NCBI GenBank assembly: GCA_963767925.1
Contig: CAVYGB010000008.1
Coordinates: 1,568,001-1,632,000, forward strand
Direction: 5' to 3'
Origin: an uncultured delta proteobacterium
GTDB lineage: Bacteria; Myxococcota_A; Polyangia; Fen-1088
Length of the DNA: 64,000 nt
The notes beneath the pieces are model-generated. The model saw only the letters and a list, made by a program, of their open reading frames with translations. It did not search any database and had not been told where the DNA came from. The translations under genes and the position numbers were made by a program. Each line of letters starts with the position of its first letter. The stretch's first letter is position 1. Shown one piece after another: positions 39,041 through 63,979 of the stretch.

Positions 39041-39145
39041 GCGTCCGTCGCGCGTCAATGCCGCAACTGCCGAAATTCATACCGCCCTGAGCCGGTGTGC
39101 GCCACAGGGGGAGATCTCTCCGCCCAGGCCTCCCCCGCTCTGCCG

Positions 39146-39310
39146 CTAGTCCCCTGGAACGGTGATTTCTTGCATATCTCGGCGGTCCTCTTCGTCCCTG
39201 GCTGCGTTGCTCGTCGGTTAAATACGCCCGGTATTCGCCCTCCTCGCGCCTTGCCAGGAACGAAGATGCCTCGCCGACATATGCAAGACTTCACCTTTCC
39301 AGGGGACTAG
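39146..39310 (-). mobile_element. CTAG-bounded 161-bp hairpin element, copy A (MITE-like)
   Basis: Perfect 14-bp terminal IR CTAGTCCCCTGGAA/TTCCAGGGGACTAG, ~55-nt imperfect arms, 54-nt core (39201-39254) homologous to copies B and C. Confidence 0.7.
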
Positions 39311-39346
39311 CAACAATCGCCCGGTCGCGGCCGATGAGGCTCCGTG

Positions 39347-47117: not shown

Positions 47118-49450
47118 ACGAGAACGAACCAGCCCCTCCGGCCGAGTCCGAGGCGGCTGAACCCCGCTCGGAGCAGTCCGGGCAGCCCGGGTCCACCCAA
47201 CTGTCTTTTGCCGCGCTCGACCTCGGGCCGGACGTGATCCGGGCGCTGACCGACATGGGCTTTGCCGAGCCCATGCAGGTCCAGGCCGAGGTGATCCCGC
47301 GGGTCCTCACCGCCCGAGATCTGATGGTGCAGTCGCGCACCGGATCGGGCAAGACCGCCGCCTTCGGCATCCCCCTGGTGGATCGCATCGTCAATCCGGA
47401 CAACAAGTTCGTGCAGGCCATCGTGCTGCTGCCCACCCGGGAGCTGGCCCTGCAGGTGGCCGGGGAGATCGCCCGCATCGCGGCCCATCGACCCATCGAG
47501 GTGGTTCCGGTCTACGGCGGCGCGCCCATGGGGCGGCAGATCGAGCAGCTCCGGGCGGGCGGGCAGATCGTCTGTGGCACCCCCGGGCGCGTCCTCGACC
47601 ACCTCCGGCGGGGGACCCTGGTGCTGGACCGGGTGCGCTGCGTGGTCCTCGACGAGTGTGACGAGATGTTGTCGATGGGCTTTCAGGAGGACATCGAGGC
47701 CATCGTCGAGCGGACGCCGAGCGACCGCCAGACGCTGCTGTTCTCTGCCACCGTGCCCGAAGGGATCCAGCGGCTGGCCCGGCGGTTTCTCCGCGACCCC
47801 GAGATGGTCAAGCTGTCGGCCGACTTCGTGGGGGTCCACGAGATCCGACACGTCTATTACGCCATCCCGGGCGGGCAGCGCGAGGCTGAGCTTCTGCGGG
47901 TGCTCGAGTTCGAGAACCCGGTGCGGGCCATCGTCTTTTGCAACACGCGGGAAGAGACCGGCCGGGTGGCCGAGTTCCTGCGCCGGCAGGGGTTCGAGGC
48001 GGAGGCGATCTCCTCGGACCTCTCGCAGGTGGATCGAGAGAAGGTCATGGGGCGCATGCGGGCCGGCTCGATCCGGTTCCTGGTGGCCACCGACGTCGCC
48101 GCCCGGGGGATCGACCTCGAGGCGCTGTCCCACGTCATCAACTACACCTTCCCCGAGTCGCCCGAGGTGTACATCCACCGCACCGGTCGGACCGGGCGCG
48201 CGGGACGGCACGGCACCGCCATCTCGCTCATCGGACCCACCGAGGTCGGACCGTTTTATTACGTCAAGCTGCTGTACAAGATCCGGCCGGAGGAGCGCTC
48301 CTTGCCCTCCGAGGCCGAGATCCGGGCCAAGCGGGAGGGCGAGCGCATCCAGACCCTGCGCGCACGCCTCAACCGCGACCCGGGACCCCTCTGGCGCTCG
48401 CTGGCCCGGCGGTTGATGAGCGCCCTCGATGGCGAGCAACTCTGCGCGGGTCTGCTCGCCGAGACGTTCGAGCGGGTGACGTTCGAGCGAGAGGGGGCCA
48501 GCCCCCCGGCACCCCGGGTCGAGGACCGGGCCATTCCCTCCCGGCCGCGCGAGCCCGGGCCCCGTGAGTCCGTGTTCCGCGACTCGGGTCCCCGCGACTC
48601 GGGTCCCCGCGACTCGGGTCCTCGCGAGTCCGGGCCCCGCGAGCCCCGAGAGTCCGGCCTCCGGGATTCCGGCCCACGTGACGCCGGGCCCCGCGAGTCC
48701 GGCCCGCGGGATTCGGGTCCCCCCCGGGATTCGGGTCCCCGGGATTCCGGATCGCGCGACGCCGGGCCCCGCGAGTCCGGCCCGCGGGATTCGGGTCCCC
48801 CCCGGGATTCGGGCCTCCGGGACTACGGGTCGAAGCCCCGCACGGACCGACCGGGGCGCGAGCGCTTCCGGGAGGACCGCGACCGGGGCCGCCGCCCGCG
48901 GGCAGAAGGCCCGGGCGATCGTCCGCCGTCCGATCGGCTGTCGACCCGCGAGGACCGACCCCGCCGGGAGCGCCGGCCCCCGCGGGAAGCGGGTCCCCCG
49001 CCCGTTCCCCCGCTGACGACGACGGTGACCGAGCCCGAGAGCACCACCCCGCGTCCCGCGGTGACCGGCGACCGCGACTTCTGGTCGGTATGGCGCGAGG
49101 ACGGCAGCAGCAGCGCCGCCCCGGTTGCCCCGACGGCGCCCGCGCCGTCGGCCGCGCCTTCGTTCGCTCCGCCGGCCCCTGCCCTGCCCGGGCCCGGGCT
49201 CTCCGAGTCCGATCAGGCCCGCCTGTTCCTGAACCTGGGACGGAAGGACGACGCCACCGCCGAGGAGGTGGCGGGGCTGTTCGGAGAGCTGGGGGTCGCG
49301 ATCCCGCCCGAGGACATCGAGCTCATGAACACGCACTGCTACGTCAACGTCCCCCCCGGGGACGCCGAGCGGCTGTGCACGTCCTTGAGCGGGCGCGAGC
49401 GGCAAGGCCGGCGCCTCTCCTGCGAGCCGGCCCGCCCCCGACGCCGCTAG
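47114..49450 (+). CDS. DEAD-box RNA helicase with C-terminal DbpA RNA-binding domain (DeaD-like)
   Basis: Q motif, SRTGSGKT, PTRELA, TPGR, DECD, SAT, ARGID, HRTGRTGRAG; C-terminal RLFLNLGRKD. Confidence 0.92.
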   Translation: MNENEPAPPAESEAAEPRSEQSGQPGSTQLSFAALDLGPDVIRALTDMGFAEPMQVQAEVIPRVLTARDLMVQSRTGSGKTAAFGIPLVDRIVNPDNKFVQAIVLLPTRELALQVAGEIARIAAHRPIEVVPVYGGAPMGRQIEQLRAGGQIVCGTPGRVLDHLRRGTLVLDRVRCVVLDECDEMLSMGFQEDIEAIVERTPSDRQTLLFSATVPEGIQRLARRFLRDPEMVKLSADFVGVHEIRHVYYAIPGGQREAELLRVLEFENPVRAIVFCNTREETGRVAEFLRRQGFEAEAISSDLSQVDREKVMGRMRAGSIRFLVATDVAARGIDLEALSHVINYTFPESPEVYIHRTGRTGRAGRHGTAISLIGPTEVGPFYYVKLLYKIRPEERSLPSEAEIRAKREGERIQTLRARLNRDPGPLWRSLARRLMSALDGEQLCAGLLAETFERVTFEREGASPPAPRVEDRAIPSRPREPGPRESVFRDSGPRDSGPRDSGPRESGPREPRESGLRDSGPRDAGPRESGPRDSGPPRDSGPRDSGSRDAGPRESGPRDSGPPRDSGLRDYGSKPRTDRPGRERFREDRDRGRRPRAEGPGDRPPSDRLSTREDRPRRERRPPREAGPPPVPPLTTTVTEPESTTPRPAVTGDRDFWSVWREDGSSSAAPVAPTAPAPSAAPSFAPPAPALPGPGLSESDQARLFLNLGRKDDATAEEVAGLFGELGVAIPPEDIELMNTHCYVNVPPGDAERLCTSLSGRERQGRRLSCEPARPRRR
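48546..48830 (+). repeat. 15-bp coding tandem repeat (R-D/E-S-G-P)n with a 78-bp higher-order duplication
   Basis: CGCGACTCGGGTCCC-type units; 48680-48735 repeated at 48758-48813. Confidence 0.9.
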
Positions 49451-61538: not shown

Positions 61539-62930
61539 CTACGAAGCTCGCGGCTCCGGCTTCTGGTCGGAGAGGTCCACCTGTCGGGCCAGCTCGAGCA
61601 GTTGCTCGGGCGTGTTCAGGCTCGGATCGTCGAGCACCCGCTCGAGCAGCCCTTCGAGGATCTTCCCCACCTGGCGGCCCGGGGCGATGGCCAGGGCCTG
61701 CATGACGTCGCGGCCGCCGACCGCGAGATCCTTCACCGTGAGGACCGCGTCGGCCGAGACCACGTCGGCCACCCGCTGGCGCAGGTCGCGGGTCTCCAGA
61801 TCGGGCTGCTCGCCGAAGCCCCGTCCGACCACGTCGGCCTCGCGCAGGGCCAGCAGAGCCGGCAGCTCGGCCACCCCCACCCGGCGCAGGAACCGGCGCA
61901 CGGTGCCGTCGCTCCATTCGGGCGTGTAATAGAACATGTGGTTGGCCACCAGGCGCTCGACGGTCTCCCGCTCGGCCCCGGGGAGCTTGAGGCGATGGCA
62001 GATTGTCACCGCCATCTCGGCGCCCAGGTGCTCGTGCCGGTAGAAGCTGTATTCGCCCGGCATCCCCGGCTTTGGCTCGCGGGTGCGGGGCTTGCCGACG
62101 TCGTGAAGGAGGGCGCCCAGCCGGAGCACCACCTCGCCCGAGGCGCCGGTCAAGGTGGCGAGACCGTGTCCGTATACGTCGTACTTGTGAAAGCGGTTCT
62201 GGGTGCAGCCGCGGCCCTCGAGCAGCTCGGGGAGCACCTCGGCCAGCAGGTCGGTCTCGCGCAGGAGATCGACGCCGCGGGCGGGGGCCTCGCTGGCCAG
62301 GATCTTGAAGAGCTCGTCGCGGACCCGCTCGGCCGAAACCTTCCGGAAGGAGTCGAGGGTGGCGGGGATGGCCCGCAAGGTGGGCCCGTCGATGGTGAAG
62401 TCGAGCTGGGTTGCTTGCCGGACCGCCCGCATGGGCCGCAGGCCGTCCTCGCGGAAGCGCTGCAGAGGATCGCCCACCGCCCGCACGAGCCGGCGCCCGA
62501 TGTCTCCCTGCCCGTCGAACGGATCGAGGAGGGCCCCCGACAGGGGATCGTAGGCGATGGCGTTCATGGTCAGATCGCGGCGGGCCAGGTCCTCCTCGAG
62601 CGTCTTGCCGAACTCCACCGAAGAGGGGCGCCGCCCGTCCAGGTAGACCCCCTCGCCCCGGAAGGTCGTGACCTCCACCGGACGGCCGGCGGGGGGCGCC
62701 CCGGTGAGGACCGTGACGGTGCCGTGCTGCAACCCCGTGGGGATGGCGAACCGCTGACCGAACAGCTTCAGCACGGCGTCGGGCGCGGCGCTGGTTGCGA
62801 CGTCGAAGTCCTTCGGCGAGCGCCCCAGCACCAGATCGCGCACGCCGCCGCCCACCAGATGAGCCTGGTGTCCTGCCTCCTGCAGGCGCCGGCACACCGC
62901 CACCACGTCGTCGGGTATCCGGGCGCGCAC
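61539..62930 (-). CDS. cca: class II tRNA nucleotidyltransferase with HD domain
   Basis: LVGGGVRD..LG..PKDFD, EVTTFR, EDLARRDLTMNA, RFREDGLRPMRA.R, SAERVRDE, LLHDVGK. Confidence 0.88.
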   Translation of the reverse strand: MRARIPDDVVAVCRRLQEAGHQAHLVGGGVRDLVLGRSPKDFDVATSAAPDAVLKLFGQRFAIPTGLQHGTVTVLTGAPPAGRPVEVTTFRGEGVYLDGRRPSSVEFGKTLEEDLARRDLTMNAIAYDPLSGALLDPFDGQGDIGRRLVRAVGDPLQRFREDGLRPMRAVRQATQLDFTIDGPTLRAIPATLDSFRKVSAERVRDELFKILASEAPARGVDLLRETDLLAEVLPELLEGRGCTQNRFHKYDVYGHGLATLTGASGEVVLRLGALLHDVGKPRTREPKPGMPGEYSFYRHEHLGAEMAVTICHRLKLPGAERETVERLVANHMFYYTPEWSDGTVRRFLRRVGVAELPALLALREADVVGRGFGEQPDLETRDLRQRVADVVSADAVLTVKDLAVGGRDVMQALAIAPGRQVGKILEGLLERVLDDPSLNTPEQLLELARQVDLSDQKPEPRAS

Positions 62931-63094
62931 TAGTGCCTCACGGCAGAAGATCGGTCATGGTTTCGGCGTCGAGGCGCCCCGCCAGCAAGGCGCGACGACG
63001 AGCAATACTGAACGCATTTCGAGGAGGAGCAACGCCGCTGGCGCGGATGCATCGGCGGCGAAACCATGGTCGAGATTCTGCCATGGGGCACCAG
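62930..63094 (+). mobile_element. CTAG-bounded 161-bp hairpin element, copy B
   Basis: CTAGTGCC...GGCACCAG ends; arms pair (e.g. TCGGTCATGGTTTCG/CGAAACCATGGTCGA); core 62985-63038. Confidence 0.7.
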
Positions 63095-63254
63095 TGCACC
63101 GCTCTCGAAATAGCGTCAAGGATCCGCCGACAAGCCTGCGGCCCCGCGAGGCGCGACGACGACGAATATCCGGCATATTCCGAGGAGGAGCAACGAAGCG
63201 GGGGCGCAGGATCGTCGGCGCAGCCTTGACGACATTTTGCGAGCGATGCACTAG
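63091..63254 (+). mobile_element. CTAG-bounded 160-bp hairpin element, copy C (tandem with B)
   Basis: CCAGTGCA...TGCACTAG ends; arms pair (CGTCAAGG/CCTTGACG, CGCCGAC/GTCGGCG); core 63146-63199. Confidence 0.7.
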
Positions 63255-63979
63255 CGGGTCTCGAGGGCCTGGCCGGCCGCCTGCAACGCGGCCAGGGCGC
63301 GGGCGGCGGCGTTCTGCTGGGCCTCTTTCTTGGACTTGCCCAGCGCGCGGCCGTACTCCTTGCTGCCGAGGTAGATGGCCACCTCGAAGGTCTTGTCGTG
63401 GTCCGGCCCTTCCTGCGCGATCACCGTGTAGGTGGGCGCCAGGTGCAGGCGGGCCTGGGAGATCTCCTGCAGGCGGGACTTGAAGTCCCGATCGGCCGCG
63501 GTGGAGGCCTGGGCCAGCTCGCTCTCGAACAGCCGTTCGGCCACCCGGTAGGCGGCGTCGAACCCCCCATCCCGGTAGACCGCTCCCACGAGGGCCTCGA
63601 GGGCGTCGGCCAGGATCGAGCGCTTCTGGCGGCCGCCGGCCTGCTCCTCGCCGCGGCCGAGGAAGATCCACTGGCCCAGGGCGAGCACCTCCGCCACCCG
63701 GGCCAGACCGGCCTCGTTGACCAGGGCCGCGCGCTTCTTCGACAGCTCACCTTCGGGATGCTCCGGGTGGTGGCGCATCAGGAGGTCGCTCATCACCAGG
63801 GCGATCACGGCGTCACCGAGGAACTCGAGCCGTTCGTTGTCCGCCCTGCCCTCCTCGGCCCGCTCGTTGAGCCAGGACTTGTGCGTCAGCGCAGTCTCAC
63901 ACAGGCGCTCATCGAGAAAGTGGTACCCGAGCCGTTGCTCGAGCGCGCTGTACCGGGCGTCACCTCTGGCGGCGATCAT
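63251..63979 (-). CDS. rnc: ribonuclease III
   Basis: ALTHKS, NERLEFLGDAV, EGELSK.RA.LVN, LADALEALVGA, dsRBD (DFKSRLQE...GKSKKEAQQNAA). Confidence 0.96.
   Translation of the reverse strand: MIAARGDARYSALEQRLGYHFLDERLCETALTHKSWLNERAEEGRADNERLEFLGDAVIALVMSDLLMRHHPEHPEGELSKKRAALVNEAGLARVAEVLALGQWIFLGRGEEQAGGRQKRSILADALEALVGAVYRDGGFDAAYRVAERLFESELAQASTAADRDFKSRLQEISQARLHLAPTYTVIAQEGPDHDKTFEVAIYLGSKEYGRALGKSKKEAQQNAAARALAALQAAGQALETR

Follow-up and report, generated by a model that had tools for sequence, protein, structure and literature searches.

Three 54-nt segments in the 64,000-nt stretch of DNA analysed here (the window) align with one another without gaps, and a preliminary description of the window proposed that each of them folds, on one strand only, into a hairpin in which GA letters face GA letters in tandem. 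The locus raises the question of what kind of sequence these segments belong to, how they are mobilised, and what reads the fold. The ungapped alignment of the three cores and every letter quoted in that description were checked against the sequence and are correct.

Elements in the window

A degenerate core pattern run over the window gave three matches, at 62985-63038 (+), 63146-63199 (+) and 39201-39254 (-), against none in 100 dinucleotide shuffles. The features to which the text refers are the following, with positions in the window.

39146..39310, minus strand: MITE copy A, 165 nt, from CTAG to CTAG; its ends match those of an IS630-family element of a related genome
39201..39254, minus strand: core A, 54 nt; covariance-model hit at 39191-39265, 88.3 bits
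62930..63094, plus strand: MITE copy B, 165 nt; starts with CTAG (62930-62933) and ends with a decayed CCAG (63091-63094) that is common to copy C
62985..63038, plus strand: core B, 54 nt, the G.A-zipper hairpin, with positions numbered 1-54; covariance-model hit at 62974-63048, 70.5 bits
63091..63254, plus strand: MITE copy C, 164 nt, abutting copy B; terminal CTAG at 63251-63254
63146..63199, plus strand: core C, 54 nt; covariance-model hit at 63135-63209, 73.2 bits
63251..63253, minus strand: TAG stop codon of an RNase III-like open reading frame (63251-63979), inside the terminal CTAG of copy C

Each 54-nt core is the centre of a hairpin element of about 165 nt that is bounded by CTAG. All three copies end in CTAG or a decayed form of it, and the two tandem copies have one CTAG in common. 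The inverted arms of copy A (39145-39184 and 39272-39311) are 90% complementary and those of copy B (62927-62975 and 63049-63097) 80% complementary; in contigs from other samples the match to copy B starts at 62928-62930. A conserved module of ~75-100 nt, of which the core forms the apical ~54 nt, lies between terminal inverted repeats derived from IS630.

Two further observations concern the surroundings of these copies. In a genome of the same genus (G001), the RNase III-like gene ends in a TAA stop codon within CTTAG, and there is no MITE at that place. Elsewhere in the window, positions 48515-48831 form a tandem-repeat block with a 15-nt unit; longer periods of 30, 45 and 78 nt are superimposed, and CCCCGCGAGTCCGGG-like units are frequent.

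Copy number and distribution

In the genome to which the window belongs (G000; 9.34 Mb, 71% G+C, 13 contigs, assembly 83.8% complete), the pattern finds 62 copies of the element and the covariance model 67. There are three subfamilies, with 37 A-type, 4 B-type and 21 C-type copies; their arms are mutually unlike yet self-complementary, while the core is conserved. In eight cases two copies adjoin, with a spacing of 160-161 nt and a single CTAG in common. The tetranucleotide itself is scarce in this genome, with 2,140 occurrences counted against ~24,700 expected from base composition in a hand calculation. The same genome also contains, outside the window, 29 copies (at most 8 mismatches) of another repeat bounded by CTAG, which is ~55 nt long and often abuts an A-type MITE with a common CTAG, for example upstream of C2:213567 and C8:319309.

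Among 41 relatives, the element was found in 16 by BLAST and in 22 by the covariance model. The genome of the same genus has a single model hit, against 67 in the window's genome. Downstream of rnc the spacer measures 339 nt here, with two copies, and 72 nt in G001, without copies; both copies are absent from this orthologous empty site, where divergence is too great for a clean TA target duplication to be read.

Far beyond these relatives, the exact core pattern, with one genome taken per species, matches in at least 125 stretches. The taxa among the matches listed include Polyangiaceae, Vicinamibacterales, Verrucomicrobia, Nitrospirales, Elusimicrobia, Omnitrophota, Planctomycetes, Gemmatimonadota, Binatia, Saccharibacteria, Actinomycetota, Bacteroidota and several proteobacterial groups, and the constant core is also carried by Acidobacteria. 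Five complete genomes hold 2, 25, 150, 52 and 45 copies, against 0 for a reversed control pattern. Across phyla whose G+C content ranges from 50 to 75%, about 20 letters of the core are unchanged, and the arms and apical stem vary with compensation. Cultivable carriers include Ottowia, Iodobacter and Caballeronia strains. A Caballeronia plasmid has one unannotated intergenic copy, and one contig classed as viral (loci L152 and L153) has two copies of the two-module form described below. B-type-like copies with other flanks also occur in two soil metatranscriptome runs and one doubtful run, on contigs of small share for which carry-over of DNA is possible.

Fold and covariation

Forty-seven sequences of one length class were aligned without gaps, and the fold of the preliminary description was written onto this alignment as its structure. 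With this fold 87.3% of cells pair, against 63.2 +/- 1.0 after shuffling, and the covariation score is 0.566, against 0.170 after shuffling and at most 0.164 when the partners are slid. None of 500 shuffles attained the observed pairing or covariation value; the copies share descent, so these shuffle counts are not probabilities. From the 47-sequence alignment alone RNAalifold returned the same structure, including the isolated pairs 12:42 and 15:39 between 2x2 GA/GA loops. A covariance model was built from this structure, and in its alignment of 105 sequences 89.4% of cells paired, against 60.4 after shuffling, with a score of 0.626 against 0.164. Cores of 45, 46, 47, 48, 49, 50 and 51 nt number 11, 11, 52, 46, 10, 7 and 5, respectively.

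On the GA strand the module forms one continuous irregular helix. It starts with an outer stem, followed by G5-C49, G6.A48, C7.A47, G8-C46 and C9-G45. The middle consists of two, often three, units in which one Watson-Crick pair is followed by a tandem G.A/A.G, the third tandem lying above 15:39 in many sequences. Above these come a G.T wobble, which is frequent, then an A/T-rich stem of 6 bp and a loop of 4-7 nt.

The pairs 12:42 and 15:39 had been described as C-G in copies B and C and as G-C in copy A, and this covariation is borne out on a much wider scale. In 138 distinct cores from many phyla, 12:42 is CG in 77, GC in 42, AT in 9, TA in 4 and something else in 6, so that 132 are Watson-Crick pairs; 15:39 is G-C in 69, C-G in 41, A-T in 12, G-T in 6 and something else in 10, with 122 Watson-Crick pairs. 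The common combined states of the two (12:42/15:39) are CG/CG in 34 cores, GC/GC in 31 and CG/GC in 25, and the two pairs swap independently of each other. The pair 24:30 of the apical stem, C-G in copies A and B and T-A in copy C, had likewise been read correctly.

Most of the collected sequences were obtained with a pattern that fixes the GA letters, and the invariance of GA among them is therefore by construction. The unbiased set consists of 40 covariance-model hits from divergent relatives and other loci. In this set 10:44 is G.A in 31 and G-C in 7, 11:43 is A.G in 30 and C-G in 7, 13:41 is G.A in 31 and G-C in 8, and 14:40 is A.G in 32 and A-T in 5. Below them, 7:47 is C.A in 26 and A.G in 11, 8:46 is G-C in 33 and A-T in 7, and 9:45 is C-G in 38 and G-C in 2. 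In one subfamily the first tandem (10:44 and 11:43) is replaced by G-C and C-G, in 7 of the 40, and in another the second is replaced by G-C and A-T (13:41 in 8 of 40, 14:40 in 5 of 40). Because the G.A pairs swap to Watson-Crick pairs at the predicted partner positions, the GA letters are true structural partners. GA(10-11) thus faces GA(43-44), and GA(13-14) faces GA(40-41), as the preliminary description had it; the invariance that it ascribed to these letters does not hold. Each variant subfamily retains one tandem G.A, and since subfamilies with one tandem replaced still multiply (~50 low-scoring hits in G034 and 14 in G037), no single tandem is essential.

Strand specificity

The fold had been proposed to be possible on one strand only, and the mismatches that are tolerated within it agree. 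At the variable pairs, G.T or T.G occurs 133 times against 27 for A.C or C.A, and G.A or A.G 109 times against 39 for T.C or C.T; one pair position is G.T in 47 of 105 sequences. From the excess of G.T over A.C it follows that only one strand is under selection. With RNA parameters, 92 of 98 sequences have a GA strand that is predicted to be more stable than the complement, the mean difference being 5.45 kcal/mol; with DNA parameters this holds for 88 of 98, and the mean difference is 2.0 kcal/mol. For copies A and C, the RNA minimum-free-energy fold is the fold that was originally proposed.

Terminal repeats and mobilisation

The MITE probably lands in the TA of CTAG. A report of a preference of IS630 for TA within CTAG is cited by PMC2170065, and PMC2170065 itself describes the IS630-family element ISY100 as moving by double-stranded cut-and-paste into TA, with the transposase as the sole protein required.

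In four genomes, terminal inverted repeats are common to the MITE and to autonomous IS630-family elements. The first 30 bases of IS630-family (DDE_3) elements agree with the local MITE ends at 28 of 30 positions in G034, 25-26 of 30 in G043 and 21-23 of 30 in G042. A 1,187-bp IS630-family element (L189, G024; same family) adjoins a model hit. Compared with window copy A, its first 15 bases all match (17 of the first 24), as do 22 of its last 24; over the first 30 bases, 22 match between the G024 element and copy A. Nine IS630-family elements had defined ends, and the core model scored no hit inside any of them; the nine model hits in the 20 IS630 loci all lie outside the insertion sequences. 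The interior of the MITE is therefore not a remnant left by deletion of an insertion sequence. Taken together, the shared ends and the absence of the core from IS630 elements identify the repeat, very probably, as an IS630-type MITE that carries a foreign, strand-specific folded core.

In the 83.8% complete assembly of the window's genome we found no DDE_3 gene and no DDE_Tnp_4 gene; no transposase gene lies within 5 kb of any core, and no long element lies between ends of the A, B or C type. Among eight other carriers, DDE_3 is present in 8 of 8, DDE_Tnp_1 in 8 of 8 and Y1_Tnp in 5 of 8.

Other candidates for the autonomous partner were rejected. IS5-type elements of the window's genome, which produce TNA duplications in C-TNA-G, have ends unlike the MITE arms. 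In G043, 'long' elements defined by an odd spacing of termini enclose open reading frames that look like host genes by eye. In G034, a 1,662-bp DDE_Tnp_1 element differs from the MITE in its ends; it shares the target and not the mobilisation.

Several of these mobile sequences are worth recording in their own right. The 1,662-bp element, which encodes a 539-aa DDE_Tnp_1 protein, sits exactly in the terminal CTAG of MITEs, with CTAG on both sides, at three loci (L190 2139-3800, L191 1966-3627 and L192 3806-5468). IS5-family elements occur in the window's genome at C4:145393, C6:244379 and C8:890336, together with eight copies such as that at C2:583488; they have 3-bp TNA duplications inside C-TNA-G, and their ends start with GAGCCT or GAGTGAGCC. 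The same genome has eleven paralogous Y1_Tnp (HUH) genes of ~230 aa, for example at C10:706280-706999 and C2:814905-815597. Several of them are flanked by inverted copies of a ~150-nt repeat, which has a 24-nt palindrome inside, and by GCAGAG-type microsatellites. These genes and their ~150-nt repeat look like a RAYT/REP-like system that is separate from the MITE.

Architecture and genomic context

Besides the common 155-185-nt class, two longer architectures occur. A form of ~270 nt, in Nitrospirales and others, has inverted termini of 35 nt that enclose two oppositely oriented modules, the second of which has diverged and retains the GA letters. Each strand of this form carries one GA module. 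A form of ~230 nt was found in Ottowia. In the 155-185-nt class the module lies 56-65 nt from the left terminus at 51 of 59 loci, and in the two longer architectures the distance is 60 and 54 nt. This constant spacing may simply reflect the added lengths of an IS630 repeat and the lower stems. In two-module elements most of the small central hairpins are C(GNA)G, a loop that is typical of very stable DNA mini-hairpins.

Flanking genes were called crudely, by GC3, which left 49 of the 62 copies scorable. By these calls, 20 copies lie between convergent, 22 between co-directional and 7 between divergent genes, and the GA strand stands in 49 sense and 49 antisense relations to the flanking genes. 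Relative to local GC skew the orientations divide 35 against 27, or 15 against 7 at sites of strong skew, with no clear bias for a replication strand; copy positions along a complete chromosome showed no strand switch. Inspection by eye revealed no promoter-like motif. Among 28 A-type copies, private mutations number 5 in the 54 sites of the core and 11 in 114 sites of the arms, a comparison of low power; the C-type figures, distorted by indels and flanks, were left out. Since private mutations are spread evenly over core and arms in these resident copies, constraint acts on the spreading lineages and not visibly on the resident copies.

Proposed function and alternatives

About 20 letters and the fold stay constant while the ends are exchanged, which argues that something besides the binding of ends by a transposase reads the hairpin, and reads it on one strand. 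Our explanation as a whole, function included, is that of an IS630-type MITE with a protein-docking RNA hairpin as its core, and we offer it tentatively, at somewhat short of an even chance. Transcripts reading through the element would carry the GA strand, this strand would fold into a purine-stacked helix, and the helix would dock a conserved protein. MITE lineages that retain the module would spread or persist better, and with each change of host the ends would come to match the IS630 transposase present there, the module being retained.

That the fold acts as RNA is itself a finely balanced proposition, leaning slightly to the doubtful side. To our knowledge, no single-stranded DNA stage of transposition is known in the IS630 family. 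RNA is favoured because the chemistry that mobilises IS630 has no known stage of this kind, and because a conserved G.U together with tandem sheared G.A is typical of RNA recognition sites. It is also favoured because the strand asymmetry is greater with RNA parameters, because two-module forms place one GA module on each strand, and because convergent genes, between which transcription covers both strands, flank 20 of the 49 scorable copies. The equal numbers of sense and antisense relations count against any role that needs host read-through in one direction. Should the fold act as RNA, it would probably serve for docking a protein rather than for catalysis. The preliminary description had called the core a selected, oriented module for protein binding or catalysis. 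Covariation upholds the first part, a selected fold of one strand; for the second, our searches found no transcript of the core, no RNA or transcript end, no protein partner and no cleavage site.

The main rival, which we consider unlikely, assigns the role to single-stranded DNA. The GA strand, unwound at a replication fork or by supercoiling, would fold, and the transposase or a host factor would read the hairpin, which would aid the pairing of ends or copying. Tandem sheared G.A pairs and C(GNA)G loops are stable in DNA, and the DNA parameters also favour the fold (88 of 98). Orientation that is random with respect to transcription (49 and 49) fits such a role, as do the near-fixed distance of the module from the left terminus (56-65 nt at 51 of 59 loci, 60 and 54 nt in the longer forms) and the presence of one module per end in two-module elements. 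That distance, however, may be just the IS630 repeat plus the lower stems, and there is no clear replication-strand bias (35 against 27, and 15 against 7 at strong skew). In a cruciform, the G.A mismatches would destabilise the complementary hairpin. Moreover, IS630-type transposition is double-stranded cut-and-paste, and in vitro the transposase and the ends suffice (PMC2170065).

A different reading, also an unlikely one, takes the core itself as the unit of selection, a structured cargo that spreads horizontally, repeatedly acquires the ends of whichever IS630 transposase is present, and would either be catalytic itself or offer a decoy or docking site to a protein conserved among phyla of bacteria.

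It is improbable that the centre is a mere spacer, which only prevents a perfect and unstable palindrome and in which the G.A pairs are tolerated mismatches. The even decay of resident copies, the loss of one tandem G.A in some subfamilies and the fact that our searches turned up no partner or function would all agree with it. Against it, ~20 letters are kept across phyla while the arms and the apical stem change with compensation, and in the unbiased 40 the G.A pairs are replaced only by Watson-Crick pairs and not by random mismatches. The change of 7:47 from C.A to A.G in 11 of 40 also speaks against a spacer, which would in addition leave the strong strand asymmetry unexplained.

Ribozymes often ride on repeats, and the invariant purine-rich internal loops recall small-ribozyme cores. 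It is nevertheless very improbable that the core is a DNA enzyme or a small RNA that cleaves itself. No Rfam ribozyme matched at E values up to 10 for the window copies and up to 1 for the longer forms, and the fold is a plain two-strand helix with neither junction nor pseudoknot.

We give next to no credence to a protein site in double-stranded DNA, whether a palindrome or direct repeats of GASGAS, or to a short acidic coding frame, even though both halves of the core read (GAS)n and one frame consists of D/E codons. As a duplex palindrome the core is symmetric only at its S positions, and GA would read TC on the other half-site; direct repeats should have identical letters at 12 and 42, yet these are complementary in 132 of 138 cores; and the excess of G.T over A.C would be meaningless for a duplex. 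A coding role conflicts with core lengths of 45-51 nt, which cover every residue class, and with in-frame stops in B-type copies. Equally remote, and already largely refuted, is a REPIN-like repeat mobilised through its DNA hairpin by a RAYT (HUH Y1) transposase: eleven Y1_Tnp genes are present in the window's genome, one of them 447 nt from an A-type copy, and the single and double module architectures resemble REP and REPIN, but a core lies within 5 kb of only 3 of the 11 genes, another repeat flanks several of the eleven, three of eight genomes with the element gave no Y1_Tnp match (one of the three being a complete chromosome with 25 copies), and the MITE ends match IS630 elements instead and read CTAG, with no GTAG tag.

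Significance

MITEs are normally the genus-bound debris of insertion sequences, and a core that crosses phyla stands apart from that norm. Here the ends that bind the transposase are exchanged, while Nitrospirales, Verrucomicrobia, Acidobacteria, Elusimicrobia and Proteobacteria have a non-canonical fold and ~20 letters in common. The motif is abundant, with tens to 150 copies per genome, and structured, with strong covariation and natural swaps of G.A to Watson-Crick pairs, and it has no Rfam entry. New in this work are the independent covariation of 12:42 and 15:39, the G.A to Watson-Crick swaps, the wobble asymmetry, and the matches to IS630 ends in four genomes. The core is small enough for NMR or crystallography, and also for simple assays of mobilisation. 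A partner, if found, would explain how non-autonomous elements compete for propagation, and the core could then serve as a portable RNA or single-stranded DNA tag. Should selection act on the core as a unit of its own, the core would represent a previously undescribed kind of mobile, aptamer-like module.

Comparison with known systems

At the gathering thresholds of Rfam 15 only tRNAs pass in the window, and at loose E-values the best non-tRNA scores for the window copies and the longer forms are 17.7 bits against a threshold of 75 and 40.8 against 100. Among the papers listed by literature searches with 11-mers of the core and on the topics of MITEs, IS630 and sheared G.A pairs, none describes this family; the listed matches to the 11-mers were unrelated primers.

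Tandem sheared G.A pairs are known in RNA from the kink-turn, bacterial loop E and the SECIS quartet, where they are features recognised by proteins, and in DNA from the (GGA)n zipper and the d(GCGAAGC) mini-hairpin. The core resembles these motifs in that 5'-GA-3' faces 5'-GA-3' between Watson-Crick flanks, and differs in its symmetric helix, built of two to three tandems in alternation with single Watson-Crick pairs. The consensus has symmetric 2x2 loops and no 3-nt bulge at the G.A pairs, which rules out a kink-turn.

Among hairpin repeats, the Correia elements of Neisseria and the ERIC/YPAL repeats of enterobacteria do not extend beyond a genus or family; they give long hairpin transcripts and contain internal functional sites. 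Like the element described here, they are intergenic imperfect palindromes of 100-170 nt; there is no likeness in sequence, and those families lack the G.A-zipper core. REP and REPIN sequences with their RAYT are also extragenic hairpin repeats with single or inverted double modules, whereas our element has neither a GTAG nor a CGTC tag, no linkage to a RAYT, and IS630 ends. PATEs of the IS200/IS605 type have neither inverted termini nor a target duplication and show a strand bias with replication; an assignment to them was rejected, given inverted termini and a skew bias of 35 against 27. With regard to integron attC sites, tandem copies of the element adjoin directly, with no cassettes between them.

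The closest known systems are the MITEs mobilised by IS630 or Tc1-mariner transposases, which include the bacterial RUP and MITEEc1 and the plant Stowaway. In a census of MITEs in 183,232 genomes, 97.4% are reported as conserved only within genera, and a MITEEc1_IS630 is named (bioRxiv 10.1101/2024.01.18.576219). The element of the window shares with this class its short length, its non-coding and multicopy nature, its IS630 terminal inverted repeats and, probably, insertion into TA, here within CTAG. What sets it apart is its interior, a strand-specific folded module that is kept across phyla while the ends change.
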